This document shows, piece after piece, positions 249-33,456 of a stretch of DNA of 34,095 bases; the first letter of the stretch is position 1, and each line of letters starts with the position of its first letter. A program made the position numbers and the translations under genes. This DNA is from a virus (taxonomy: Duplodnaviria > Heunggongvirae > Uroviricota > Caudoviricetes). The stretch lies in the IMG/VR virus record IMGVR_UViG_2695420685_000005; one strand, 5' to 3'. The notes beneath the pieces were generated by a model that saw only the letters and a list, made by a program, of their open reading frames with translations, had not been told where the DNA came from and searched no databases.

Positions 249-1262
249 TTACTCTACTGTGGACACTGTGTGGACACTCTCGGCTTCAGTACCACCTCTT
301 AGCGGATTAAGAGAAATGGCGTCCTGAAGGTACTCTGGCGCAAAATGAGCGTAAACCATAGTTTGCTCAATCCGCGTGTGACCTAGTATCCGTTGTAGCG
401 TGATAATACTTCCTCCATTAATCATGAAATGAGTGGCAAAGCTGTGCCTTAGTGCATGTGTGGCTTGCCCCGTTGGCAAATCCGGTTTTATTGCTTTCAT
501 TGTTCGTCTGAAGCGAGGGTAATCAGCATCAGGGAATAAAAAACCTCGTTTGTTATCCGCGATCATTTTGGCAACAGCCTCTGAGATCGGGACGGTGCGT
601 GGTTTGTTTGTTTTCGTTTTAACAAACGTGACGCGGTTATGGATGATATTTTCTGCTTTCAAACGAGCTGCTTCTCCCCAACGTGCTCCTGTACTCAGGC
701 AAAGAATCGCAATCTTTTTGTTGTCGCCGTCAAGTGCTGCAAGCAGTAAGGCAATTTCTTCCTGTGTGAGATAGCCTGTTTCTGGTTTTTCCTCCTTAAG
801 CCTCTTTGTCCCTCTGATAGGGTGCTCACCAAAGAATAACTCCGCTTCAATCAGGGCTGTAAACATGCCGCTAATACATGTTAAATCACGATTGATACTC
901 GAAGGTTTAATACCCTGACTTCTTCGGGTGGCGCAGTACTGGCTGATAAGGGATTTCGTGATTTGAAATGCGCATGGGTCATTCGTTATTTTTGTGAAGA
1001 TTTCAATTTTTCCAAGATTAGATTTCCCATGCTCTTCGTGTTTACCCTTTAAATCCCACCAGATCTGTGTCAGTTCCGACAGACGTCGTTTGTCTGTTGG
1101 TTTTGATAGCCATTCTTTATTGTGGTGGTTGTACAACGTGTATTTTTCGAAAGCGACAGCTTCGCTTTTCTTATCAAACTTCCTACGGATGCGTTTTCCG
1201 TTACGTCCAGTAGGGCGGATGTCCACTTCATATCGACCATCATCGAGTTTTTTGATTGCCAT
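249..1262 (-). CDS. int: Tyrosine site-specific integrase, P2 Int type (337 aa)
   Basis: Translation carries tyrosine-recombinase C-terminal signatures (HALRHSFATH ... LGH ... Y); size and position next to att match P2 Int. Confidence 0.92.
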   Translation of the reverse strand: MAIKKLDDGRYEVDIRPTGRNGKRIRRKFDKKSEAVAFEKYTLYNHHNKEWLSKPTDKRRLSELTQIWWDLKGKHEEHGKSNLGKIEIFTKITNDPCAFQITKSLISQYCATRRSQGIKPSSINRDLTCISGMFTALIEAELFFGEHPIRGTKRLKEEKPETGYLTQEEIALLLAALDGDNKKIAILCLSTGARWGEAARLKAENIIHNRVTFVKTKTNKPRTVPISEAVAKMIADNKRGFLFPDADYPRFRRTMKAIKPDLPTGQATHALRHSFATHFMINGGSIITLQRILGHTRIEQTMVYAHFAPEYLQDAISLNPLRGGTEAESVHTVSTVE

Positions 1263-6771: not shown

Positions 6772-6928
6772 AGAACGCCGCCAGTCGTGAAACTTGTTTT
6801 CAGGGTTGGCGGGGTGAACAACTCATCTGCGGAGGCGTTAGCATACTAGGTGATAATCTTGAGCATTGAACCTTTTGCATAGATCCCTTATTGTTCTGGG
6901 GATTTTTTACCGCTTCGTAGGGAAAGTG

Positions 6929-8056
6929 ATGGAAACTGGAATCGTTACGTTCTTTGATATCAAGGCTTGTGGTTTTTACAGACTGAAGAAAAACGCAGAA
7001 GAATTAGAGCATAAATTCGGAACACTTGATGAGATCTTTGACGCGTTGCAGGCTTGGCTTGATGACAAAAGCGTTGAGGAGTCAATTCCGTGGGATACGG
7101 GAACTCATCCGCTAAGAGCCAGAACTTACTCACGAGGAGTGGCTGTCGATCCCGATACAAAAGATCGGGTGATGGTAATGTATCGCGCATTAGGTTCCGC
7201 GAAGGGACGTTTGCACGCTGTTAAAAAAAACGCACCTGTTGGTGCTACAGAAAATGATACAGTAAAGACAGAAACGAATGGAAAAGACTATATTTGGGTT
7301 GAGCCATGTTATTATTGGGTAATTCCTGAATATAACAAGATTGCATCCATTATATTTCCTCATTCAGGTGCAGATACACCGAGGTTAAGCAATTATATTT
7401 TTAATTTTGTAGTAAATCACGGTGATTTTGGTAGGGAAAAGGATACTACCTCATTTACTAGAGCTCGTTCTTCATGTTCGGAAGATGACATTCTTATTTC
7501 TAAAACAATTTTCAAGCATGTAGATGAAAATGGACGCAAGTGTAATTGCGTTTTTAAATTTAAGGCTGAAGTGACGAAGGTTAATAAACCAGGGACGAAT
7601 ATTCTTGATGTACGAGATAAAATTGTTCAGACAATTATTCGTGATACTACGGTCGCAAAAGTTGAGGATACCCGGCAACCGTTATTACGTCTGGTGAGTA
7701 ATGTACTATCGGATTTCTTGGGAACAGAACAAACCAAGTTTACAAAACCTAAAAAAATTGAGGTTCGAGTAGATGGTGCTCCTTCGGAAGAGGAGATAAA
7801 ACAACTATTGGATAGAAATGTAGATGATGTTGACTGGGTTGATGTTGGCTTTGTTCTTAAAGATTCATCTCGCCCATTATGGTTAAAAAAATATATGGCG
7901 AGAACTGCATTAATTGTCAGCGATTCTACCGGGGATGAGCATTTCTCTCCAGAAAAACTCCTTCATGAAATAAAGGCTGTCCGTGATGATTTACTCCAAA
8001 CAATCCTTTATAATGAAGAGGTGGAAGAAAAATCTTTAAAAACGGCGGAGGCATAA
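6929..8056 (+). CDS. AT-rich cargo gene 1: soluble protein of unknown function (375 aa from ATG at 6929; 396 aa if the upstream TTG at 6866 is used), candidate defence component
   Basis: Long ORF with sharply lower GC than the flanking phage genes; no transmembrane segments or classical P-loop seen; stop overlaps the start of the next gene (taaATG); sits at the P2 tin/old hotspot. Confidence 0.6.
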   Translation: METGIVTFFDIKACGFYRLKKNAEELEHKFGTLDEIFDALQAWLDDKSVEESIPWDTGTHPLRARTYSRGVAVDPDTKDRVMVMYRALGSAKGRLHAVKKNAPVGATENDTVKTETNGKDYIWVEPCYYWVIPEYNKIASIIFPHSGADTPRLSNYIFNFVVNHGDFGREKDTTSFTRARSSCSEDDILISKTIFKHVDENGRKCNCVFKFKAEVTKVNKPGTNILDVRDKIVQTIIRDTTVAKVEDTRQPLLRLVSNVLSDFLGTEQTKFTKPKKIEVRVDGAPSEEEIKQLLDRNVDDVDWVDVGFVLKDSSRPLWLKKYMARTALIVSDSTGDEHFSPEKLLHEIKAVRDDLLQTILYNEEVEEKSLKTAEA

Positions 8057-8596
8057 ATGTCACCTCAAACAAGTAAGGATTTAAAGGCATTGATAATACA
8101 ATGGAAATGGAATTTGTTAATTCTATTTCTAATTGCTGTGGCCTCCTATTGGCTGAAAGCTTATGTTAACTATAGTGATATAAAAGATATACTGGGTGTT
8201 TTGCAAAACATATCTGCTGCAATTTTTACCATAGTTGGATTATGGATTGGTTTTTTATATCCGAATGCAATTGCAAGCATTGTCAATGATGATGTTGATT
8301 ACATAAAGAATACGAAAGATGCACCTCGAATTGAAAAGCTAATTTACGTTGTAATTACTTCAGCAGTAGTAATGCTTTCGATTTTGTTTGTTTATCTGTT
8401 TAAATCAATAGGCTCTGTGCTATCGAGTTCAGTGGTGTATTCTGATCTTATTAGAATGATTGGAATCACCTTTGTTTATTTTATGTGCTGGTTACAAATA
8501 AAGTGTGTGTTTAGTGTTATTTTAAGCAACTTATCATTTGCAAACAATCTTCACTCAAGAATAGTAAATGCTAGGTTCTCTCATCATGATGATTGA
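8057..8596 (+). CDS. AT-rich cargo gene 2: small integral membrane protein with about 4 TM helices (179 aa), candidate effector
   Basis: Four hydrophobic stretches (about residues 18-33, 52-72, 95-115, 134-157); translationally coupled to cargo gene 1; same low-GC island. Confidence 0.6.
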   Translation: MSPQTSKDLKALIIQWKWNLLILFLIAVASYWLKAYVNYSDIKDILGVLQNISAAIFTIVGLWIGFLYPNAIASIVNDDVDYIKNTKDAPRIEKLIYVVITSAVVMLSILFVYLFKSIGSVLSSSVVYSDLIRMIGITFVYFMCWLQIKCVFSVILSNLSFANNLHSRIVNARFSHHDD

Positions 8597-19156: not shown

Positions 19157-20065
19157 ATGCCGATTATCGACCTGAACCAGCTACCTGCACCGGATGTGGT
19201 CGAGGAGCTGGACTTTGAAACCATTCTTGCCGAACGCAAGGCGACACTGATTTCCCTTTACCCGGAAGACCAGCAGGAGGCGGTCGCCCGTACCCTGACG
19301 CTGGAATCCGAGCCTCTCGTCAAACTGCTGGAGGAAAATGCTTATCGTGAGCTTATCTGGCGTCAGCGTGTGAATGAGGCCGCACGGGCGGTAATGCTGG
19401 CCTGTGCCGCCGGTAATGACCTTGATGTGATTGGTGCCAATTACAACACCACGCGCCTGATTATCACCCCGGCAGATGATTCGACCCTCCCGCCGACACC
19501 GGCAGTGATGGAATCTGACACGGATTATCGTCTGCGTATTCAGCAGGCGTTTGAAGGTTTAAGCGTCGCCGGGTCGGTGGGGGCCTATCAGTATCATGGT
19601 CGCAGTGCCGACGGGCGTGTCGCGGATATTTCTGTAACCAGTCCGTCTCCGGCCTGCGTCACCATCTCTGTGCTGTCACGTGAAAATAACGGTGTCGCAT
19701 CCGAAGACCTGCTGGCGGTGGTGCGTAACGCCCTTAATGGCGAGGACGTCAGGCCGGTGGCCGACCGCGTGACCGTGCAGTCTGCCGCCATCGTTGAATA
19801 CCAGATAAACGCCACGCTTTACCTTTACCCTGGTCCCGAAAGCGAACCCATTCGCGCTGCCGCCGTGAAAAAACTGGAAGCGTATATCACGGCACAGCAC
19901 CGGCTGGGGCGCGACATCCGTCTGTCTGCCATTTATGCCGCTTTGCATGTGGAAGGTGTGCAGCGTGTCGAACTGGCTGCACCACTGGCCGACATCGTGC
20001 TCAACAGTACGCAGGCGTCTTTCTGTACCGAATACCGCGTCGTGACCGGAGGCTCGGATGAGTGA
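19157..20065 (+). CDS. J: Baseplate protein J (302 aa)
   Basis: Size and synteny with P2 J. Confidence 0.85.
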   Translation: MPIIDLNQLPAPDVVEELDFETILAERKATLISLYPEDQQEAVARTLTLESEPLVKLLEENAYRELIWRQRVNEAARAVMLACAAGNDLDVIGANYNTTRLIITPADDSTLPPTPAVMESDTDYRLRIQQAFEGLSVAGSVGAYQYHGRSADGRVADISVTSPSPACVTISVLSRENNGVASEDLLAVVRNALNGEDVRPVADRVTVQSAAIVEYQINATLYLYPGPESEPIRAAAVKKLEAYITAQHRLGRDIRLSAIYAALHVEGVQRVELAAPLADIVLNSTQASFCTEYRVVTGGSDE

Positions 20066-20588
20066 TTCGCGACTGCTGCCGACCGGCTCATCACCGCTTG
20101 AGGTCGCCGCCGCAAAAGCCTGTGCGGAAATTGAAAAAACGCCGGTCAGTATTCGTGAGCTGTGGAACCCGGACACCTGTCCGGCAAATCTGCTGCCGTG
20201 GCTGGCGTGGGCGTTTTCGGTCGACAGGTGGGATGAAAAGTGGCCGGAAGCGACAAAACGCGCCGTTATCCGCGATGCGTATTTCATCCACTGTCATAAA
20301 GGCACTATAGGTGCAATCCGGCGTGTGGTGGAGCCGCTCGGCTATCTCATCAACGTGACGGAGTGGTGGGAAAACAGTGACCCGCCCGGCACCTTCCGGC
20401 TTGATATTGGTGTACTGGAAAGTGGCATCACAGAGGCAATGTATCAGGAAATGGAACGGCTGATTGCTGATGCCAAACCTGCAAGCCGCCACCTTATTGG
20501 CCTGAACATTACCCGGGACATTCCCGGCTACCTGTTCGCCGGTGGTGTGGCTTACGACGGCGATGTAATTACGGTTTACCCCGGATAA
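20058..20588 (+). CDS. I: Baseplate/tail protein I (176 aa)
   Basis: Size and synteny with P2 I. Confidence 0.85.
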   Translation: MSDSRLLPTGSSPLEVAAAKACAEIEKTPVSIRELWNPDTCPANLLPWLAWAFSVDRWDEKWPEATKRAVIRDAYFIHCHKGTIGAIRRVVEPLGYLINVTEWWENSDPPGTFRLDIGVLESGITEAMYQEMERLIADAKPASRHLIGLNITRDIPGYLFAGGVAYDGDVITVYPG

Positions 20589-20598
20589 GTGAGGAATA

Positions 20599-22728
20599 AT
20601 GAGCACAAAATTCAAAACCGTTATCACCACTGCCGGTGCAGCAAAGCTGGCAGCGGCAACCGCACCGGGAGGGCGGAAGGTCAACATTACCACGATGGCC
20701 GTCGGGGATGGCGGTGGTAAATTGCCTGTCCCGGATGCCGGACAGACCGGGCTTATCCACGAAGTCTGGCGACATGCGCTGAACAAAATCAGTCAGGACA
20801 AACGAAACAGTAATTATATTATCGCAGAGCTGGTTATTCCGCCGGAGGTGGGCGGTTTCTGGATGCGTGAGCTTGGCCTGTACGATGATGCGGGAACATT
20901 AATTGCCGTGGCGAACATGGCCGAAAGTTATAAGCCAGCTCTTGCCGAAGGCTCAGGGCGTTCGCAGACCTGTCGCATGGTCATCATCGTCAGCAGTGTG
21001 GCCTCAGTGGCGCTGACCATTGACACCACAACGGTGATGGCGACGCAGGATTACGTTGATGACAAAATTGCAGAGCACGAACAGTCACGACGTCACCCGG
21101 ACGCCTCGCTGACCGCAAAAGGTTTTACTCAGTTAAGCAGTGCGACCAACAGCACGTCTGAAACACTGGCCGCAACGCCGAAAGCGGTAAAGGCCGCATA
21201 TGACCTTGCTAACGGGAAATATACTGCGCAGGATGCCACCACGGCGCGAAAAGGCCTTGTTCAGCTCAGTAGTGCGACTAACAGCACGTCTGAAACGCTC
21301 GCCGCAACGCCAAAAGCAGTAAAGACAGCATATGACCTTGCTAACGGGAAATACACTGCACAGGACGCCACCACAGCGCGAAAAGGGCTTGCTCAGCTCA
21401 GTAGCGCCACCAACAGCGATTCTGAAACGCTTGCGGCAACGCCAAAGGCGGTAAAGGCAGCATATGACCTCGCTAACGGGAAATATACCGCACAGGATGC
21501 CACCACGGCGCGAAAAGGTCTTGTCCAGCTCAGTAGCGCCACCAACAGCGATTCAGAAACGCTTGCGGCAACACCAAAGGCGGTAAAGGTCGCGTATGAC
21601 CTTGCTAACGGGAAATATACTGCGCAGGATGCCACCACGGCGCGAAAAGGCCTTGTTCAGCTCAGTAGTGCGACTAACAGCACGTCTGAAACGCTCGCCG
21701 CAACACCAAAAGCGGTGAAGTCTGCCTATGACAATGCTGAGAAACGTCTTCAGAAAGATCAGAACGGTGCGGATATTCCTGATAAAAGATTATTCCTGCG
21801 CAATATTGGTGCAACAAATTCAACAACCATGTCTTTTAGTGGTGGTACAGGATGGTTCAGGCTGGCAACTGTAACCATGCCACAGGCCAGTTCCGTGGTT
21901 TACATAAGTCTGATTGGTGGTGCTGGATATAATGTTAACTCCCCTATGCAGGCTGGTATATCTGAACTTGTTCTTCGTGCGGGAAATGGAAATCCAAAAG
22001 GTCTTACTGGTGCGTTATGGCGACGGACATCGGTTGGATTTACTAATTTTGCATGGGTGAATACATCCGGTGATACCTATGATGTTTATGTTGAAATAGG
22101 TAATTACGCCACAGGTGTTAATATTCAGTGGGATTATACCAGTAACGCCAGCGTAACGATTCATACATCACCATCTTATACAGCGAATAAACCAACAGGC
22201 CTGACAGATGGAACTGTATATGTAATTTACAGTTCGCACATTAAACCGACTGCTGCTGATGTTGGGGCGTTGTCATTATCTGGAGGTCAATTGAATGGTG
22301 CACTGGGCATCGGAACATCCAGTGCTCTTGGCGGTAACTCGATTGTTTTGGGTGATAATGACACAGGCTTTAAACAAAATGGCGACGGTAATCTGGATGT
22401 TTATGCTAATAACGTTCATGTTATGCGCTTTGTCTCCGGTAGCATTCAAAGTAATAAAACCATAAATATTACGGGGCGTGTTAATCCCACTGATTACGGT
22501 AACTTTGACTCCCGCTATGTCCGGGATATCCGGCTTGGTGGTGCCGCCACATACAAACCTGCGAACAATGGCATGACATGGACACATCAGGTACCGTCAG
22601 GGTGTGTATATACCGGCATTATTGTTCAGGATACCGGCTCAAACTCTGCCGATAACATTGGTGGCGTATATTACAGACCGGTGCAGAAATACATTAACGG
22701 GACATGGTATAACGTGGCGCAGGTATAA
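20599..22728 (+). CDS. H: Tail fibre protein H (709 aa) with conserved N-terminus, internal 40-aa repeats and a lower-GC C-terminal receptor-binding region
   Basis: N-terminus matches P2 H; five tandem 40-aa repeats; GC drops in the 3' third. Confidence 0.88.
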   Translation: MSTKFKTVITTAGAAKLAAATAPGGRKVNITTMAVGDGGGKLPVPDAGQTGLIHEVWRHALNKISQDKRNSNYIIAELVIPPEVGGFWMRELGLYDDAGTLIAVANMAESYKPALAEGSGRSQTCRMVIIVSSVASVALTIDTTTVMATQDYVDDKIAEHEQSRRHPDASLTAKGFTQLSSATNSTSETLAATPKAVKAAYDLANGKYTAQDATTARKGLVQLSSATNSTSETLAATPKAVKTAYDLANGKYTAQDATTARKGLAQLSSATNSDSETLAATPKAVKAAYDLANGKYTAQDATTARKGLVQLSSATNSDSETLAATPKAVKVAYDLANGKYTAQDATTARKGLVQLSSATNSTSETLAATPKAVKSAYDNAEKRLQKDQNGADIPDKRLFLRNIGATNSTTMSFSGGTGWFRLATVTMPQASSVVYISLIGGAGYNVNSPMQAGISELVLRAGNGNPKGLTGALWRRTSVGFTNFAWVNTSGDTYDVYVEIGNYATGVNIQWDYTSNASVTIHTSPSYTANKPTGLTDGTVYVIYSSHIKPTAADVGALSLSGGQLNGALGIGTSSALGGNSIVLGDNDTGFKQNGDGNLDVYANNVHVMRFVSGSIQSNKTINITGRVNPTDYGNFDSRYVRDIRLGGAATYKPANNGMTWTHQVPSGCVYTGIIVQDTGSNSADNIGGVYYRPVQKYINGTWYNVAQV
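21118..21720 (+). repeat. Five tandem copies of a 120-bp (40-aa) unit inside H, phage tail-fibre repeat type
   Basis: Unit KGLVQLSSATNS[T/D]SETLAATPKAVKxAYDLANGKYTAQDATTAR repeated in frame, with copies starting near 21118, 21238, 21358, 21478 and 21598. Confidence 0.85.
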
Positions 22729-22731
22729 TTT

Positions 22732-23259
22732 ATGCAGCATTTAAAAAATATTACGGCGGGTAATCCAAAAACGGTTGAACAATATCAATTGACAAAGGAC
22801 TTTGATGTTGTCTGGTTTTTTTCAGAAGATGGTAAGAACTGGTACGAAGAACAAAAGTATTTTGCTGATGACACGATAAAAATAGCGTACGACAAAGATA
22901 ATATCATCCGCTATGTGGAAAAGGATGTGACAGCTATCAGACCGGATGGATTAAGTGTTGTTGAAGTGACGGATATTACTGCTAACCGACGGGCGGACAT
23001 TTCAGGGAACTGGATGTTTAAGGATGGCACAGTGATTAAACGAATTTATACGGCAGAGGAATTGCAGCAGCAGGGAGAAAATCGGAAAGCCAGACTTCTA
23101 GCAGATGCTGAATCCGTGATTTTGCCGCTGGAGCGTGCTGTCAGGCTGAATATGGCAACAGATGAGGAGCGTAGCCGACTTAAAACATGGGAACGCTACA
23201 GCGTTCTGGTCAGTCGTGTGGATCCTGCCAATCCTGAATGGCCGGAAATGCCGCAATAA
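22732..23259 (+). CDS. G: Tail fibre assembly chaperone G (175 aa)
   Basis: Directly downstream of H; size matches P2 G / Tfa-type chaperones. Confidence 0.8.
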
Positions 23260-23624
23260 GTTGTATGAGCTTACATATCTATAGCACAGAGTAAAGTCTA
23301 CTCTGACAGTCTGCTCTGTGCTAGGAGCAGATGTAGTTAATATCATAGTATCTGTTGAACAAATTAGAGCGAGCAAGGGAGAATTGTGTATAATTTTGTT
23401 TGAGTATTTCTATACATGTGTTATAGATATTTAAAAGTTGATGCGTTAATTTTATTCGGAGGTCTAATGTCTGTAGGTGCGTATGAAAATGATTATTTAG
23501 ATGAGTTGAGATAGTTTGTGCAGAAAAAAGAAAATAGTATTTTTATGCACTCCAAGAAAGAATTAAATATTATAACATTTTTCATCCAACTTCCATTGAG
23601 AAGATAAAATAAAGAGGTTTTTGA

Positions 23625-24953
23625 GTGAAACTTGAATTTTTGGTTCTTGTCACAAATGATGATTCTTTTTGCAATAGTAAAAAAGCTTTTATTGACTTTC
23701 TAAAAATTGACTCGCTTATCTCAATCACGGGGCGCAAACTAACATATAAGAAAACCCCAAGATCGAATCCGTTAATTACGGTTAAATTCAATGTTGAAAC
23801 GAATAACATCCCATCCAACAAAGAACGTTATTTCATAATTGCATTGGAAAACACAAGCGAAGAATTAATTGATGAATTTTCTGAGGTTGGAGATAAAATA
23901 AAAGAATTATGCAAAAGGATAAACCCTGAATCTACAGTAATAAATATTCTTTGGGATGATATTGGAAGATATTATGCGCATAAGTCTTACCCTATAATAA
24001 ATGATGTTGAAAACGTAATGAGGAAATTAATAAGTAAATTTATGCTTATTAATGTAGGCATGGCTTGGTCAAAGGAAGCCATTCATCCAGACTTAGTGAA
24101 AAAAATCGAAAAATTTGAAGAAGATGATGTGTATTTGAATGATCTTTACAAGCTTGATTTCATAAATCTATCAGAAGTTTTGTTCCAAAAGAAGAGAGAT
24201 ATAACTCTGGATGAGCTTGATAGGATTCTTATCAAAACGAATTTTGATGAGTCCGATAAAAATAAAATACTTAAATATGTACCCAAATCAAATTGGGAGA
24301 AGTATTTCTCTACTCTCCTGGAGGAGAACTCGCAACATCTTGAAAGAAAATGGGAGCGACTTTACAAATTGAGAAATAAGGTTGCACATAACAGATTTTT
24401 AACTAAACAGGATTTTTGTGAAATAAGAAGTTTATCAAACCAAGTAAAAGAAATCCTCAATGGTGCAATAAACAAGCTAGGGGAGATTGATCTTGATGAG
24501 GAAGACCGCAATCAAATTATATATAGTTATCAATCCCAAAATCCAATTGCAATAGAACATTTGGCCGAAAAATCTGTTGCGGAATTTTACATAAGAAATG
24601 GATTCGAAGTTGACCTGTCACCCTCTTTGGGATGTAGGCCAACTATAGATTTAATAGTTAAAAAAGAAAGTGATGTTATTGCTGTGGAAATTAAAAGCTT
24701 TTCTTCTCGGGGTTTATTGACCTCAATGAGGACTCGCTTATTTTCTGCTATCCAACAGCTTGAAAAGTTTTTAGAGCGGGAAGATATAACACAAGGAGAA
24801 ATTATAGCTGTAGTGAGGGGTGGTATTGATGAGGAATTAATGCCTAAACTCATAGGGCTATTAACTTTTATCAGAAGTACAGTAAACTCTACAATTTCCA
24901 TCAATATTGGTACTCTAGATATTGATGATAATTTTGAACTAATTGATTTATAG
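23625..24953 (+). CDS. AT-rich cargo gene at the Z/fun position: 442 aa protein with a HEPN-like Rx4H motif and a C-terminal PD-(D/E)xK-like nuclease motif, candidate single-gene defence/abortive-infection protein (GTG start)
   Basis: Very low GC against the flanking tail genes; motif LYKLRNKVAHNRF (R-x4-H); C-terminal RPTIDLIV...DVIAVEIK (D...ExK); aagagg ribosome-binding site about 8 nt before the GTG. Confidence 0.6.
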   Translation: MKLEFLVLVTNDDSFCNSKKAFIDFLKIDSLISITGRKLTYKKTPRSNPLITVKFNVETNNIPSNKERYFIIALENTSEELIDEFSEVGDKIKELCKRINPESTVINILWDDIGRYYAHKSYPIINDVENVMRKLISKFMLINVGMAWSKEAIHPDLVKKIEKFEEDDVYLNDLYKLDFINLSEVLFQKKRDITLDELDRILIKTNFDESDKNKILKYVPKSNWEKYFSTLLEENSQHLERKWERLYKLRNKVAHNRFLTKQDFCEIRSLSNQVKEILNGAINKLGEIDLDEEDRNQIIYSYQSQNPIAIEHLAEKSVAEFYIRNGFEVDLSPSLGCRPTIDLIVKKESDVIAVEIKSFSSRGLLTSMRTRLFSAIQQLEKFLEREDITQGEIIAVVRGGIDEELMPKLIGLLTFIRSTVNSTISINIGTLDIDDNFELIDL

Positions 24954-25094
24954 CTATATAAATATTTAAAAAACAAACCATGGTTTACTAATCGTGTGAC
25001 CATGTCCGCTCCTCGCTCAAAGCAGACTGTCAGATTTGATAACTTTTGGGCTATGTAAATTGTCAGTCGGAAAATGAGTGAGTACAAATCAAGG

Positions 25095-25123
25095 CAGGCG
25101 GGCTGATTGCCCGCCTTTTCTTT
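25095..25123 (+). terminator. Rho-independent terminator between the cargo gene and FI
   Basis: ggcgggc-tgatt-gcccgcc stem-loop followed by ttttctttat. Confidence 0.55.
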
Positions 25124-25219
25124 ATCTGTTGTTTCATCCACTGACCAGCCAGGTCAAATAGCGTCTCATGCACTACCCAACGGAAAATAGTTGCACCCAT
25201 TAACCACGGAGTTAAACGG

Positions 25220-26410
25220 ATGAGTGACTATCATCACGGCGTGCAGGTGCTGGAAATTAACGACGGCACCCGCGTCATTTCCACCGTATCCACGGCCATT
25301 GTCGGCATGGTCTGCACGGCCAGCGATGCAGATGCGGAAACCTTCCCCCTCAATAAACCTGTGCTGATTACCAATGTGCAGAGTGCAATTGCAAAGGCTG
25401 GTAAAAAAGGCACGCTGGCGGTATCGTTGCAGGCCATCGCTGACCAGTCAAAACCGGTCACCGTTGTTGTGCGTGTGGAAGACGGCACCGGCGACGACGA
25501 GGAAACGAAACTCGCGCAGACCGTTTCCAATATCATCGGCACCACCGACGAAAACGGTCAGTACACCGGACTGAAAGCCCTGCTGGCGGCGGAGTCGGTA
25601 ACCGGTGTTAAACCACGAATTCTCGGCGTACCGGGACTGGACACCAAAGAGGTGGCTGTTGCACTGGCATCAGTCTGTCAGAAGCTGCGTGCTTTCGGGT
25701 ATATCAGCGCATGGGGATGTAAGACCATTTCCGAGGTGAAAGCCTACCGCCAGAATTTCAGCCAGCGTGAGCTGATGGTCATCTGGCCGGATTTCCTCGC
25801 ATGGGATACGGTCACCAGTACCAACGCCACCGCGTATGCCACCGCCCGTGCGCTGGGTCTGCGCGCTAAAATCGACCAGGAGCAGGGCTGGCATAAAACG
25901 CTGTCCAACGTCGGGGTAAACGGTGTTACCGGCATCAGCGCATCTGTATTCTGGGATTTGCAGGAGTCCGGCACCGATGCTGACCTGCTTAACGAGTCAG
26001 GCGTCACTACGCTGATTCGCCGCGACGGTTTCCGATTCTGGGGTAACCGTACCTGCTCTGATGACCCGCTGTTCCTCTTTGAAAACTACACCCGCACCGC
26101 GCAGGTGCTGGCCGACACGATGGCTGAGGCGCACATGTGGGCGGTGGACAAGCCCATCACCGCAACGCTGATTCGCGACATCGTTGACGGCATCAATGCC
26201 AAATTCCGTGAGCTGAAAACAAACGGCTATATCGTGGATGCGACCTGCTGGTTCAGCGAAGAATCCAACGATGCGGAAACCCTCAAGGCCGGAAAACTGT
26301 ATATCGACTACGACTATACACCGGTGCCTCCTCTTGAAAACCTGACCCTGCGCCAGCGTATTACCGATAAATACCTGGCAAATCTGGTCACCTCGGTTAA
26401 CAGCAATTAA
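25220..26410 (+). CDS. FI: Tail sheath protein FI (396 aa)
   Basis: Size and synteny with P2 FI. Confidence 0.9.
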   Translation: MSDYHHGVQVLEINDGTRVISTVSTAIVGMVCTASDADAETFPLNKPVLITNVQSAIAKAGKKGTLAVSLQAIADQSKPVTVVVRVEDGTGDDEETKLAQTVSNIIGTTDENGQYTGLKALLAAESVTGVKPRILGVPGLDTKEVAVALASVCQKLRAFGYISAWGCKTISEVKAYRQNFSQRELMVIWPDFLAWDTVTSTNATAYATARALGLRAKIDQEQGWHKTLSNVGVNGVTGISASVFWDLQESGTDADLLNESGVTTLIRRDGFRFWGNRTCSDDPLFLFENYTRTAQVLADTMAEAHMWAVDKPITATLIRDIVDGINAKFRELKTNGYIVDATCWFSEESNDAETLKAGKLYIDYDYTPVPPLENLTLRQRITDKYLANLVTSVNSN

Positions 26411-29879: not shown

Positions 29880-30359
29880 ATGATGCTCGCGTTAGGTATG
29901 TTTGTTTTTATGCGCCAGACGCTGCCACACCAGACCATGCAGCGTGAATCGGATTATCGCTGGCCGTCAAATTCCCGTATCGGTAAACGGGATGCCTTTC
30001 AGTTTCTCGGTGTAGGTGAGGAAAACATCACGCTGGCCGGTGTGCTTTATCCCGAACTGACCGGCGGAAAGCTGACGATGACCACGCTCAGACTGATGGC
30101 AGAGGAAGGCCGGGCGTGGCCGTTGCTGGATGGCACCGGCATGATTTACGGCATGTATGTCATCAGCAGGGTGAGTGAAACAGGGAGTATTTTCTTTGCA
30201 GACGGCACACCCCGAAAAATTGATTTTACGCTGTCGCTCACCCGCGTTGATGAATCACTGGCCGCGCTTTATGGCGATATCGGTAAACAGGCAGAATCGC
30301 TCATCGGTAAGGCTGGCAGTATGGCGACTAAATTCACGGATATGACGGGGGCGGGATAA
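29880..30359 (+). CDS. U: Tail protein U (159 aa)
   Basis: Size and synteny with P2 U. Confidence 0.85.
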   Translation: MMLALGMFVFMRQTLPHQTMQRESDYRWPSNSRIGKRDAFQFLGVGEENITLAGVLYPELTGGKLTMTTLRLMAEEGRAWPLLDGTGMIYGMYVISRVSETGSIFFADGTPRKIDFTLSLTRVDESLAALYGDIGKQAESLIGKAGSMATKFTDMTGAG

Positions 30360-31522
30360 TGCTGGATGCACTGACATTTGATGCAGGCAGTACGCTGACG
30401 CCGGATTACATGCTGATGCTCGACAGCAGGGATATTACCGGCAATATCAGCGACCGTCTGATGAGCATGACCCTGACGGATAACCGGGGCTTTGAGGCTG
30501 ACCAGCTTGATATTGAACTGAACGATGCCGACGGGCAGGTCGGGCTGCCGGTTCGTGGCGCTGTCCTGACGGTGTATATCGGCTGGAAAGGTTTTGCCCT
30601 GGTATGCAAAGGGAAATTTACCGTTGATGAGGTTGAACACCGGGGCGCGCCGGATGTGGTTACCATCCGCGCCCGGAGTGCAGATTTTCGCGGGACGCTC
30701 AATTCCCGCCGGGAAGGCTCATGGCATGACACCACGCTCGGTGCGATTGTTGAGGCGATAGCCTCCCGTAACAGGCTGGAAGCCAGTGTCACTCCGTCAC
30801 TGGCCGGAATTAAAATCCCGCACATCGACCAGTCGCAGGAGTCTGATGCGAAATTCCTGACCCGTCTTGCTGAACGCAACGGCGGCGAGGTGTCGGTAAA
30901 AATGGGAAAACTGTTGTTTCTCAAAGCGGGGCAGGGGGTGACGGCCAGCGGTAAAAAAATCCCGCAGGTCACCATAACCCGCAGCGACGGCGACCGCCAT
31001 CATTTTGCGATTGCTGACCGTGGAGCCTATACCGGCGTAACGGCAAAGTGGTTACACACCAAAGATCCGAAACCACAAAAGCAGAAGGTAAAACTGAAAC
31101 GCAAAAAGAAAGAAAAACACCTGCGCGCACTGGAGCACCCGAAAGCAAAACCGGTCACGCAGAAGAAAGCGCCAAAAGTACCGGAAGCGCGCGAAGGTGA
31201 ATACATGGCCGGTGAGGCTGACAACGTTTTTGCCCTGACTACGGTATATGCCACGAAAGCGCAGGCCATGCGCGCCGCTCAGGCGAAGTGGGATAAACTG
31301 CAACGGGGGGTGGCGGAGTTCTCCATCAGCCTGGCTACCGGTCGGGCTGATATTTACACGGAAACGCCGGTCAGAGTGTCAGGCTTTAAGCGCGTCATAG
31401 ACGAGCAGGACTGGACAATCACTAAGGTGACACATTTTCTGAATAATAGCGGCTTCACGACGTCCTTAGAGCTTGAGGTCAGGCTTTCTGATGTGGAGTA
31501 CGAAACAGAAGATGATGAGTGA
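30359..31522 (+). CDS. D: Tail protein D (387 aa, late gene D)
   Basis: Size and synteny with P2 D; last gene of the tail operon. Confidence 0.9.
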   Translation: MLDALTFDAGSTLTPDYMLMLDSRDITGNISDRLMSMTLTDNRGFEADQLDIELNDADGQVGLPVRGAVLTVYIGWKGFALVCKGKFTVDEVEHRGAPDVVTIRARSADFRGTLNSRREGSWHDTTLGAIVEAIASRNRLEASVTPSLAGIKIPHIDQSQESDAKFLTRLAERNGGEVSVKMGKLLFLKAGQGVTASGKKIPQVTITRSDGDRHHFAIADRGAYTGVTAKWLHTKDPKPQKQKVKLKRKKKEKHLRALEHPKAKPVTQKKAPKVPEAREGEYMAGEADNVFALTTVYATKAQAMRAAQAKWDKLQRGVAEFSISLATGRADIYTETPVRVSGFKRVIDEQDWTITKVTHFLNNSGFTTSLELEVRLSDVEYETEDDE

Positions 31523-31923: not shown

Positions 31924-31950
31924 AAAAAATAAGCCCGTGTAAGGGAGATT
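31924..31950. repeat. attR: attR core: second copy of the 27-bp direct repeat
   Basis: Identical to 143-169; coincides with the 3' terminator of cyaR. Confidence 0.8.
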
Positions 31951-32010
31951 ACACAGGCTAAGGAGGTGGTTCCTGGTACAGCTAGCATTTTATGGGTTAT
32001 GTTTTTCAGC
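31924..32010 (-). ncRNA. cyaR: CyaR (RyeE) Hfq-dependent sRNA, about 87 nt
   Basis: Minus strand reads GCUGAAAAACAUAACCCAUAAAAUGCUAGCUGUACCAGGAACCACCUCCUUAGCCUGUGUAAUCUCCCUUACACGGGCUUAUUUUUU, matching the E. coli CyaR sequence as I recall it, with a 3' stem-loop and U-run. Confidence 0.85.
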
Positions 32011-32094
32011 GAAACGGATGATAACCTTAATAAATGCAGCTGTATGTGATCGGTTTCTAAGAATTTTCCATCCGGGAAAAATAATCGAAATTAA

Positions 32095-33456
32095 TCACTT
32101 ACCGTGTGGGTTACGCGTGGTTTCCCCGGAGAAATTACGCATCAGCAGAGCGTAATTGAGCTCAAGATCCTGCGGGACCGGGAGCCACACAGTATAACCA
32201 TCGCCTGGTGCGACCGGCATCGCTTCACCTTTGGCGTTTTCCATGTGCTCAAGGGTAAAGTTAATGTTGCCTTGCGGCGTCATCAGCTCAAGGCTGTCGC
32301 CAACGGAGAATTTATTTTTCACCGCTACCGCCGCGAGGTCCCCCTTGCGCTCACCGGTAAACTCACCAACAAACTGCTGGCGGTCAGAAACTGAATAACC
32401 GTATTCGTAGTTCTGATAATCGTCGTGAGTATGACGACGCAGGAAACCTTCGGTATAGCCACGATGCGCCAGACCTTCCAGAGTTTCCAGCAGGCTGGTA
32501 TCGAACGGTTTGCCCGCAGCGGCGTCATCGATAGCTTTACGGTAAACCTGTGCGGTGCGTGCGCAATAGTAGAAAGATTTAGTACGGCCTTCGATTTTCA
32601 GCGAATGCACGCCCATTTTGGTCAGGCGTTCTACATGGGCGATGGCGCGCAGATCTTTCGAGTTCATGATGTAAGTGCCGTGCTCATCTTCAAACGCGGT
32701 CATATACTCGCCCGGACGCTGGGCTTCTTCGATCATAAACACTTTGTCGGTTGGCGCGCCGATACCCAGCGTCGGCTCAACATTTTGCACCGGAATCGGC
32801 TCGTACTTGTGTACGATGTTGCCAACGTCATCTTCTTTCCCTTCCTGGACGTTGTACTCCCAGCGGCAGGCGTTGGTGCAGGTACCCTGGTTCGGATCGC
32901 GCTTGTTGATATAGCCAGAGAGCAGGCAGCGACCGGAGTAGGCCATGCACAGTGCGCCGTGAACGAAGATCTCGATCTCCATATCCGGCACCTGATTGCG
33001 GATCTCTTCAATCTCTTCCAGCGACAGCTCGCGAGAGAGGATCACGCGGGTCAGGCCCATTTGCTGCCAGAATTTCACCGTCGCCCAGTTTACGGCGTTA
33101 GCCTGCACCGAGAGGTGGATCGGCATTTCAGGGAAGTGCTCACGCACCAGCATAATCAGCCCTGGATCGGACATAATCAGCGCATCCGGCCCCATTTCCA
33201 CCACCGGTTTCAGGTCACGGATAAAGGTTTTCAGCTTGGCGTTGTGCGGTGCAATGTTGACCACGACATAAAACTTTTTCCCCAGCGCGTGGGCTTCATT
33301 GATGCCGAGCTGAAGATTTTCGTGGTTGAATTCGTTGTTGCGCACACGCAGGGAGTAACGCGGCTGGCCCGCATAAACAGCATCTGCGCCATAAGCGAAA
33401 GCGTAACGCATATTTTTCAGCGTTCCCGCCGGGGAAAGGAGTTCCGGTTTAAACAT
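32095..33456 (-). CDS. yegQ: Host peptidase-U32-family protein YegQ/TrhP (453 aa)
   Basis: N-terminus MFKPELLSPAGTLKNMRYAFAYGADAVYAGQPRYSLR matches E. coli YegQ; in E. coli K-12 yegQ neighbours cyaR and a P2 remnant. Confidence 0.85.
   Translation of the reverse strand: MFKPELLSPAGTLKNMRYAFAYGADAVYAGQPRYSLRVRNNEFNHENLQLGINEAHALGKKFYVVVNIAPHNAKLKTFIRDLKPVVEMGPDALIMSDPGLIMLVREHFPEMPIHLSVQANAVNWATVKFWQQMGLTRVILSRELSLEEIEEIRNQVPDMEIEIFVHGALCMAYSGRCLLSGYINKRDPNQGTCTNACRWEYNVQEGKEDDVGNIVHKYEPIPVQNVEPTLGIGAPTDKVFMIEEAQRPGEYMTAFEDEHGTYIMNSKDLRAIAHVERLTKMGVHSLKIEGRTKSFYYCARTAQVYRKAIDDAAAGKPFDTSLLETLEGLAHRGYTEGFLRRHTHDDYQNYEYGYSVSDRQQFVGEFTGERKGDLAAVAVKNKFSVGDSLELMTPQGNINFTLEHMENAKGEAMPVAPGDGYTVWLPVPQDLELNYALLMRNFSGETTRNPHGK

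Follow-up and report, generated by a model that had tools for sequence, protein, structure and literature searches.

The window, by which we mean the whole 34,095-nucleotide stretch analyzed (IMG/VR virus record IMGVR_UViG_2695420685_000005), is, judged by its sequence, a complete P2-like (Peduovirus) prophage. Its ORFs conform to the P2 gene set and, as assigned by Pfam and PHROG, keep the P2 gene order whole. The region considered here is the host-recognition end of the late operon, which runs V-W-J-I-H-G; gene I (20058-20588; PF09684) is followed by H, G, and FI, G starts 4 nt past the H stop codon, and the ORF after G codes for a HEPN-domain protein. Relatives of H carry the RefSeq annotation "tail fiber protein," and H matched 60 PHROG families; NCBIfam assigned no family to H or G, and Rfam gave no match within the region. 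The features are as follows.

20599-22728, + strand: gene H, tail fiber protein of 709 aa (ORF; N-terminal PF12571 plus five PF03406 matches)
20599-21120, + strand: N-terminal (baseplate-proximal) domain of H, aa 1-174 (PF12571), constant in P2-like phages
21121-21738, + strand: Phage_fiber_2 array of 132-bp units, four of them full and a fifth partial (TRF, PF03406, codon-register walk)
21393-21638, - strand: antisense ORF of 81 aa with a GTG start, within units 3 and 4; a by-product, not a gene
21739-21786, + strand: linker NAEKRLQKDQNGADIPDK, aa 381-396, common to class-A Peduovirus H and the constant part of Mu S
21787-22503, + strand: middle variable module, aa ~397-635, of low GC (matches to Mu-, P1-, lambdoid, and T-even fibers; block map)
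22351-22389, + strand: conserved island GDNDTGFKQNGDG in the middle module
22504-22539, + strand: conserved island FDSRYVRDIRLG, aa 636-647, left border of the tip and G cassette, kept in the window, P2, P88, and Mu S
22525-23130, + strand: tip and chaperone cassette of ~600 bp, codons ~643-709 of H and 1 to ~133 of G, delimited by identity between the window and the locus L023
22540-22674, + strand: fiber tip, aa 648-692, for which E. coli P2-like phages have two alleles; covaries with G and maps onto HR2 of P88
22675-22728, + strand: conserved C terminus RPVQKYINGTWYNVAQV and stop codon; shared by the window, P2, and P88 apart from V/I and T/I substitutions, with a similar end in Mu S
22732-23259, + strand: gene G, tail fiber assembly protein of 175 aa (PF02413, E = 3.8e-33)

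Residues 1 to 174 of H share 96.6% identity with P2 H, and PF12571 matches aa 1-151 (E = 1.7e-58). The amino acid identity of this domain is 98-100% in 80 IMG/VR loci, 74-94% in 22 other enterobacterial loci, and 55% in a partial Serratia match. H is assigned to the P2-type gpH proteins by its PF12571 N terminus, its position between I and G, and the Phage_fiber_2 repeats that follow the N-terminal domain. By homology, H would be a trimeric virion tail fiber that mediates adsorption, with the constant N-terminal domain presumably docking on the baseplate; in the P2-like phage P88, the role of the tail fiber in adsorption has been established by experiment (PMC5285337).

The repeats form a tandem array in frame, as the preliminary description had it, but their period is 132 bp (44 aa) and not 120 bp, and the five repeats claimed are in fact four full units (21121-21252, 21253-21384, 21385-21516, and 21517-21648 in codon register) and a partial fifth (21649 to ~21738) of ~0.65 of full length. 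TRF calls the array at 21139-21732 (score, 873), and Pfam finds five PF03406 matches in H (E = 9.5e-99), the first at aa 170-210. Nor are the units near-identical in DNA, as had been thought: the full ones share 83-92% of their nucleotides and 91-95% of their amino acids with one another, the differences being mostly synonymous, and the longest exact in-register runs between units are 11-56 nt. In all relatives, successive motifs lie exactly 44 aa apart, and the array is the only family of direct repeats of any length in 20599-25300. The preliminary description had also dismissed the antisense ORF as a spurious product of the repeats, and we agree. In the usual unit, GTT-CAG gives an antisense TGA; unit 4 has a synonymous GTC for GTT, which removes this stop and opens the frame. 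No Shine-Dalgarno sequence lies upstream, and of 12 five-copy relatives, 2 have an interrupted frame.

The repeats had further been proposed as a substrate for length variation, and here the proposal holds up. Counted by looser motif matches together with a register walk (a strict LSSATNS regular expression undercounts units), the copy number is 4, 5, and 6 in alleles of 665, 709, and 753 aa that share the same distal module, 2 in P2 H, and 0 to 3 (robust count) in relatives from other genera; repeat number is not invariant. Class-A arrays have 4 units in 47 loci and 5 units in 15, while P2-type arrays have 2 in 16 of 16. In E. coli complete genomes, 111 of which carry this module, the span among the matches listed is either 1,301 bp (5 units) or 1,169 bp (4 units). 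Eight 5-copy and six 4-copy alleles from complete genomes interleave by DNA distance, so that copy number is nonmonophyletic, and the best position for the indel varies from pair to pair. The H protein of P0008 differs from the window protein by an additional 44-aa block and 6 substitutions, and unit 1 of PSS-11 equals window unit 1 in its 5′ half and window unit 2 in its 3′ half. Some allele pairs differ by one 44-aa block alone, with the indel at several places, and some of these stem from draft assemblies in which repeat collapse is possible. Hybrid units such as that of PSS-11 probably mark in-register unequal exchange: homologous exchange of this kind (or slippage) between 132-bp units would add or remove whole 44-aa blocks and so alter the length of the shaft, more repeats presumably giving a longer fiber. 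As the unit is a multiple of 3, the frame would never be shifted. Given units that are 83-92% identical, with exact runs of no more than 56 nt, such exchange should be infrequent.

Could the differences in copy number be artifacts of assembly, through collapse or expansion of tandem repeats? Collapse would likewise yield hybrid units, and several of the pairs with zero amino acid mismatches outside the 44-aa indel include draft or metagenome proteins. However, both copy classes, 4 and 5, are represented by many RefSeq "complete genome" chromosomes of unrelated strains, there are many distinct sequences within each copy class, the exact in-register runs in the window are below the usual assembler k-mers and reads, and the P2 reference itself carries 2 units; we therefore consider an assembly artifact very unlikely. 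Somewhat less so, but still unlikely, is that the array acts as a contingency locus, switching length rapidly and in a quasi-programmed way within a lineage, instead of being a slowly evolving polymorphism. The pairs that differ by a single block at one of several positions, and the nonmonophyly of copy number in complete genomes, would suit such a switch. Against it, the units have diverged, mostly at synonymous sites; orthologous units in different alleles are more alike than paralogous units within one allele, and concerted evolution is therefore weak; no dedicated recombinase, invertase, or reverse transcriptase lies nearby (the search for the last being nonexhaustive); and the closest complete-genome pairs of unlike copy number are separated by at least 22 differing sites in H. 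A slipped-strand, simple-repeat contingency locus was rejected, the unit being a multiple of 3 and the copies only 83-92% identical. A related and admittedly doubtful idea, which we rate slightly above the switch, is that the array is an adaptive length rheostat in which 44-aa blocks are gained and lost faster than point substitutions. If so, it would tune the reach of the tip through O-antigen or capsule independently of the tip carried. The single-block allele pairs, the varied indel positions, and the nonmonophyletic copy number are compatible with this idea but do not demonstrate it. The series of 4-, 5-, and 6-copy alleles lends itself, as a natural experiment, to asking if adsorption depends on the length of the shaft.

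The close DNA resemblance to P2 ends inside the repeats. P2 and the window are colinear over V-W-J-I-H, at 96.8% nucleotide identity, up to position 21326 within repeat unit 2. H is thus not colinear with P2 H throughout, and its distal part occurs in other types of phage, in keeping with the horizontal exchange first suggested for it. The linker is covered by an alignment to residues 105 to 175 of 5YVQ_A, and a junction (J1) lies just after K396; in relatives, at least three alternative continuations are found directly after NGADIP(D/G)K. The middle module that follows is 82% identical in amino acid sequence to Sv of the Muvirus vB_YpM_5, 62% to the P1-like SJ46, 65% to the lambdoid phi458, and 35-45% to T-even gp37. 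The distal part is shared with a Muvirus (beside hin), a Punavirus (beside pin), a lambdoid Stf, and T-even gp37. To judge from the alleles compared, the middle module is assorted independently of the tip and G, and homologous recombination at short conserved islands could swap it. Candidate islands are the repeats with the linker, GDNDTGFKQNGDG, FDSRYVRDIRLG, the conserved 3′ end of H, and the conserved 3′ third of G; the partners in such exchange would be other P2-like phages as well as unrelated phages of the Mu, P1, lambda, and T-even types.

At the far end of H, a smaller cassette comes into view. Nucleotide identity between the window and L023 is at least 90% up to ~22520, falls at ~22525, is 23-80% over 22530-23130, and is at least 87% past 23130, with a conserved patch of ~90 nt (22680-22770; 77-97% identity) between the variable parts of the tip and G. 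Of 77 loci, 74 show the allele of G covarying with the final 60 aa of H. When the two alleles are compared, identity in G is 67-69% over aa 1-90 and 81-85% over aa 91-175. The covariation may in part reflect the physical linkage of neighbors, but the identity stretch at 22680-22770 could have separated them. The preliminary description envisaged the exchange of a receptor-binding domain paired with its chaperone. Joint exchange is borne out for the last ~60 aa of H with G, but not for the whole distal domain, the middle of which is independent: H distal clusters 0, 1, and 4 are each found with both G alleles, and we have rejected a single exchanged pair of whole distal domain and G. Recombination at the islands would instead swap the tip and G cassette separately from the middle module, the replaceable tip of ~45 aa being set between two conserved motifs.

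G is 74% identical to P2 G and 72% to Mu U, which it matches full length (PDB 5YVQ_B; residues 1-175 to 1-175, E = 5e-83). Its PF02413 domain and full-length Tfa match, its position directly 3′ of the fiber gene, and its variable N-terminal and conserved C-terminal halves place it among the Tfa proteins. In Tfa-Mu, as summarized in PMC9608196, the variable N-terminal domain binds the fiber and the conserved C-terminal domain serves trimerization. By homology, G should be a Tfa-type chaperone whose N-terminal domain binds the fiber tip and whose C-terminal domain drives trimerization. [quoted passage not shown]

The shift toward AT noted earlier through distal H and G is confirmed by measurement. 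Local GC ranges from 0.55 to 0.58 before the drop; it is 0.556 in the N terminus of H, 0.547 in the repeats, 0.442 in distal H, and 0.439 in G, while GC3 falls from 0.60 in the proximal part to 0.29-0.43 in the distal part (middle module: GC, 0.42; GC3, 0.29). It might be argued that fiber tips are low in GC through protein or codon constraint and not through foreign origin. P2 indeed drops at the same place (to 0.475 and 0.438), and the drop is therefore a trait of the family and not a recent event in the window prophage. Yet it is strongest at third codon positions, it starts at or just before the homology breakpoint, and the same modules are present in unrelated phage families, all of which makes constraint an improbable explanation. 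Site-specific inversion, the mechanism of Mu, P1, and P2-like P88, might alternatively switch host range. The distal module is, after all, 82% identical to one in an invertible segment beside Muvirus hin, P88 has an inverted second fiber and chaperone set with an invertase, and the peptide LFLRNIG is homologous to the LFIQNLG encoded by Mu gix. Scans for inverted repeats and Din-type cores, together with comparison with gix and cix loci, speak strongly against this: 20599-25300 contains no inverted copy of distal H or G and no long inverted repeats; the HEPN protein, and no invertase, comes after G, whereas hin, pin, or an invertase is present at the Mu-like, P1-like, and P88 loci; and the junction lacks a crossover-site core, with AAACCATGGTTT occurring just once, at 24975, which is at chance level. 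We regard inversion here as almost certainly excluded. A diversity-generating retroelement or other templated mutagenesis was also rejected, there being no pair of template and variable repeats in 20599-25300 and the ORFs fitting the P2 gene set.

We conclude with considerable confidence that H and G make up a mosaic host-recognition module of a P2-like prophage, in which a variable repeat shaft is combined with swappable modules. H may accordingly be read as five parts: a constant N terminus, a shaft of 44-aa units, a Mu S-type linker, a replaceable middle, and a replaceable tip. Interchangeable pieces and a variable repeat block are a well-known route by which phages change hosts, and this is textbook tail-fiber mosaicism. 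Our understanding of tail-fiber evolution is unchanged, and the value of the locus is practical only: it offers exact junctions that are used in nature (after K396, at the FDSRYVRDIRLG island, and at ~codon 133 of G) for the engineering of P2/P4-based delivery particles or tailocins. Of H, only the ~45-aa tip should have to be transferred along with its matching G.

As with P2 gpH and gpG (NC_001895), reportedly described by Haggard-Ljungquist, Halling, and Calendar in 1992 (J Bacteriol 174:1462; reference 10 in PMC13100340), the window genes lie at the end of V-W-J-I-H-G and share the Pfam domains, conserved islands, C-terminal end, and GC drop. DNA identity is 96.8% over the N-terminal domain and first repeat, and G is equal in length and 74% identical. 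Unlike the window, with 5 repeat motifs, P2 has 2; its last repeat is followed by "class B" sequence (TVMDETNKK...) and an unrelated middle module, and it carries the other allele of the tip (38-43% amino acid identity) and of the N-terminal half of G (67-69%). P88 (Xuanwuvirus) has a fiber of the same family with the same conserved motifs as window H but differs in its 2 repeat motifs, its P2-type tip allele, and its invertible second fiber and chaperone set with an invertase.

The distal part has its closest counterparts elsewhere. Mu S and U (PDB 5YVQ) resemble the window proteins in the single Phage_fiber_2 unit and NGADIP.K linker of Mu S, in the motifs FDSRYVRD.RLG and QK.INGTWYNVA, and in the 72% full-length identity of U to G; in the Muvirus vB_YpM_5, the variable part is 82% identical to the distal 332 aa of the window protein. 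Mu-type phages carry the module within an invertible segment flanked by gix sites, beside gin or hin and with a second, inverted set. In the window, by contrast, it is fixed, lacks an invertase and crossover sites, and is joined to a P2-type N terminus through the 5-unit array. The lambda-type Stf/Tfa of phage phi458 has the same repeat motif 5′ of the same distal module (65% amino acid identity over ~200 aa) and a chaperone of the Caudo_TAP family, but differs in its siphovirus side-fiber N-terminal attachment domain and in the sequence at the junction past the repeat. It was in lambda Stf that Pf2 was originally recognized, and other repeat domains of prophage fibers are likewise polymorphic in length (PMC3368898).

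The 34-kb window is a complete P2-like prophage, with the gene order integrase, A, Q/P, head and lysis genes, V-W-J-I, H, G, FI/FII, T, U and D. The parts of H listed here were distinguished by a block-wise identity map of the protein against representatives of ten distal types.

Features of the prophage and of its tail fibre protein H
249-1262, minus strand: integrase
20599-22728: H, tail fibre gene, 709 aa
21121, 21253, 21385, 21517, 21649: starts, in codon register, of the five repeat units of H, the fifth partial
21393-21638, antisense: spurious ORF
22732-23259: G, assembly chaperone gene, 175 aa
H, to about aa 395: constant region
H, aa ~397 to ~635: variable middle
H, aa 585-597: conserved island GDNDTGFKQNGDG
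H, aa 636-647: conserved island FDSRYVRDIRLG
H, aa 648-692: tip, with two alleles
H, last 17 aa: conserved C-terminal end

From V (18173) to 21326, inside repeat unit 2, the DNA is 96.8% identical to that of phage P2; homology then stops, and is back only at 22323-22409 (84%) and 22674-23321 (76%) before resuming at 25005. The shift toward AT that had been described for distal H and G is borne out: GC is 0.556 in the H N terminus and 0.547 in the repeats versus 0.442 in distal H and 0.439 in G, and GC3 drops from 0.60 to 0.29-0.43. H and G of P2 have the same GC and GC3 pattern. Past the end of D (30359-31522) lies the CyaR/RyeE sRNA (Rfam RF00112, 100.7 bits; 31927-32012, minus strand), so that the prophage adjoins cyaR, and after the sRNA comes a host gene for a U32 peptidase (32095-33456).

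The preliminary description had proposed five near-identical 120-bp repeats in H. A tandem array is indeed present, but its period is wrong in that account, which is for this reason only partly confirmed. Tandem Repeats Finder returned a single strong array in 21139-21732, with a period of 132 and a slightly lower count of 4.5 copies (score 873), the fifth unit keeping the repeat for only its first ~28 to 30 codons. Each unit encodes 44 aa; H has five matches to Pfam PF03406 (Phage_fiber_2; E = 9.5e-99). Nor are the units near-identical: full units share only 83-92% of their nucleotides versus 91-95% of their residues (e.g., 18 nt versus 3 aa differences), and thus differ mostly by synonymous changes, with exact in-register runs of 11-56 nt between units. 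Since 132 is a multiple of 3, the gain or loss of a unit alters length only.

The suggestion that the array varies in length held up well, as H alleles with 4, 5 and 6 copies occur with one and the same distal module, and P2 H has 2 motifs. Among the best 120 protein clusters, all of which share the distal module of the window, 115 carry 4 motifs each and the other 5 carry 6 (main lengths, 665 and 753 aa); E. coli PSS-11, with the same distal sequence, also has 4. Motif spacing was constant at 44 aa in the 100 fetched loci with the N-terminal domain. Fibres with a Mu-like linker after the repeats (class A) have 4 units in 47 loci and 5 in 15, P2-type (class B) fibres have 2 in 16/16, and other genera have 0 to 3 by a robust count. 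The array and the window's distal module are found together in 111 RefSeq complete E. coli genomes, where, among the matches listed, the span takes two values, 1301 bp for 5 units and 1169 bp for 4. When eight 5-copy and six 4-copy alleles were fetched from complete genomes and compared, the two kinds were intermixed by DNA distance: the nearest allele to 5-copy L112 was 4-copy L118, at 22 differences, with the other 5-copy alleles 39-83 away. The best placement of the 132-nt indel also varied from pair to pair. Together, this interleaving and the varying indel position argue for several independent gains or losses of units. The closest relatives of the window's H allele lie in decaying prophages. 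H of E. coli E275 a differs from it at 3 nt, and its G is truncated and followed by IS2 (L110, 2733-3301); in E. coli G6/7, J is truncated beside ISEc12 (L003, 1-2467). Near-identical RefSeq alleles are labelled "tail fiber protein."

How units might be gained or lost is suggested by hybrids. Unit 1 of PSS-11 matches window unit 1 in its 5′ half and window unit 2 in its 3′ half, and an in-register crossover within the 26-nt identical stretch common to these two units would yield such a hybrid. The 753-aa relative P0008 differs from window H by six substitutions and an additional block of 44 aa; judged by residues, the added unit begins like unit 4 and ends like unit 3, making it a product of the reciprocal (duplication) type. 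Within the window, the first 56 nt of unit 5 are identical to unit 2, and an exact run of 54 nt is common to units 1 and 4, which points to further inter-unit exchange. One block is the sole difference in some allele pairs from draft assemblies, pairs for which assembly collapse is possible.

The antisense ORF at 21393-21638, already regarded as spurious, does exist and arises from the repeats. It is open because a valine codon in unit 4 is GTC rather than GTT, which removes the antisense TGA supplied by every other unit. Given this origin, the absence of a ribosome-binding site and its interruption in 2 of 12 five-copy relatives, we rejected it as a gene.

Class-A fibres have the last repeat and a linker, NAEKRLQKDQNGADIPDK (aa 381-396), in common, and directly after K396, the last linker residue (nt 21786), at least three unrelated continuations begin. 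In window H, the last repeat and linker align with residues 105-175 of Mu S, in which the gix site encodes the peptide coming after the aligned stretch, LFIQNLG; the junction is therefore homologous to the border between the constant and variable parts of Mu S. In PHROG, 60 families match H. In the Muvirus vB_YpM_5, the variable S part, which adjoins hin and starts ~35 nt past the gix site, is 82% identical to the distal 332 aa of window H. Over the proximal ~200 to 240 aa of the distal region, identity is 62% with P1-like SJ46 (beside pin) and 65% with the lambdoid phi458 side fibre, and larger stretches of this part show 35-45% identity with T-even gp37. In four IMG/VR P2-like loci (L071, L035, L026 and L038), H runs from NGADIPGK into DTFTKNIGACRAYS, the junction sequence of the Mu S′ part in PDB 8JU3; P2-like phages therefore sample both Mu Sv and Mu Sv′ module types.

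Such a border could suggest an invertible host-range switch. However, Mu-like, P1-like and P88 loci have an inverted second fibre set, whereas none lies in 20599-25300, and the window also lacks an invertase and a crossover site at the junction; we therefore rejected a switch. In P88 (Xuanwuvirus; L125, 2832-5425), G is followed downstream by a DNA invertase and a second chaperone/fibre-tip set in inverted orientation, an arrangement that is a Mu-type invertible host-range switch within the Peduoviridae. A single perfect palindrome, AAACCATGGTTT (24975-24986), just after the HEPN ORF of the cargo island beyond G, is similar to the Din-invertase crossover core; it is at chance level, with 1.2 expected, and no invertase is present. 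A DGR was likewise rejected, there being no template/variable repeat pair in 20599-25300.

The proposed pairing of a receptor-binding domain with its chaperone stood for only part of H: G is paired with the ~60 C-terminal residues rather than with the low-GC distal domain in its entirety. E. coli P2-like phages carry two main G alleles (74% mutual identity), and distal-domain clusters 0, 1 and 4 each contain both, so that whole-domain type does not predict G. The 60 C-terminal residues of H are predictive in 74 of 77 loci: window-type tips (at least 93% identity) occur with window-type G and P2-type tips with P2-type G, the remaining three loci being of an intermediate type. The G alleles are 67-69% identical over aa 1-90 and 81-85% over aa 91-175. 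Identity between locus L023 and the window is at least 90% to about 22520, 23-80% over 22530-23130 and at least 87% beyond; these borders delimit a putative exchanged cassette of ~600 bp comprising the H tip and the first ~133 codons of G. A conserved patch (22680-22770) interrupts the divergent stretch and could have separated tip from G, yet no recombinants were seen there, and we infer that tip and G are functionally coupled, not merely adjacent. Over its full length, G aligns with Mu U (PDB 5YVQ_B; E = 5e-83), in which binding to the distal fibre is the role of a variable N-terminal domain and trimerisation that of a conserved C-terminal domain (PMC9608196). The window tip aligns with HR2 (aa 716-746) of the P2-like phage P88, replacement of which altered host range, positions 730 and 744 being critical (PMC5285337).

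An island (23332-25004) with a GC of 0.31 separates G from FI, where P2 has fun(Z); the cargo here differs in relatives sharing the window's H and G. Its ORF (23625-24953, plus strand; 442 aa, GTG start, good Shine-Dalgarno sequence) encodes an Rx4H HEPN motif, RNKVAH (aa 250-255), and a PD-(D/E)xK-like C terminus (IDLIV...VEIKS, aa 341-358). It has weak Pfam matches to HEPN_Swt1 and AHJR-like, a PADLOC match to PDC-M34B (4e-7) and none in PHROG or NCBIfam. Its family, uncharacterised ~440-aa "HEPN domain-containing proteins," is widespread in Gamma- and Betaproteobacteria, and we consider the ORF a candidate single-gene anti-phage system. Two inverted copies of a ~45- to 50-nt motif (23281-23331 and 25005-25055; 35-nt core, 83% complementary) bracket the island, and their positions coincide exactly with the end (23321) and the resumption (25005) of P2 homology. 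The pair also flanks fun(Z) in P2 (PSS-11 and G6/7 were examined on the left side only), and the left copy forms a hairpin with a 12-bp stem (z = -2.4); the motif might mark a hotspot boundary, anchor recombination or act as an RNA element. A and Q are separated by a second low-GC cargo region (6866-8596; GC 0.32-0.41), located where P2 has tin/old, with two ORFs (396 and 179 aa) that have no Pfam hit and match the PADLOC candidate system PDC-M18A/B (E = 5.6e-38 and 3.3e-16).

A 1992 study of the P2 H and G genes reportedly described horizontal transfer of tail fibre genes among unrelated phages, and H and G of the window are an instance of that phenomenon. The Phage_fiber_2 repeat was first noticed in lambda Stf, and length polymorphism has been reported for other repeat domains in prophage fibres (PMC3368898). 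The preliminary interpretation is supported, with refinements. Our additions, namely, a precise module map, the series of 4-, 5- and 6-copy alleles with crossover signatures, and the tip/G cassette, are useful details of such a system rather than a new kind of system.
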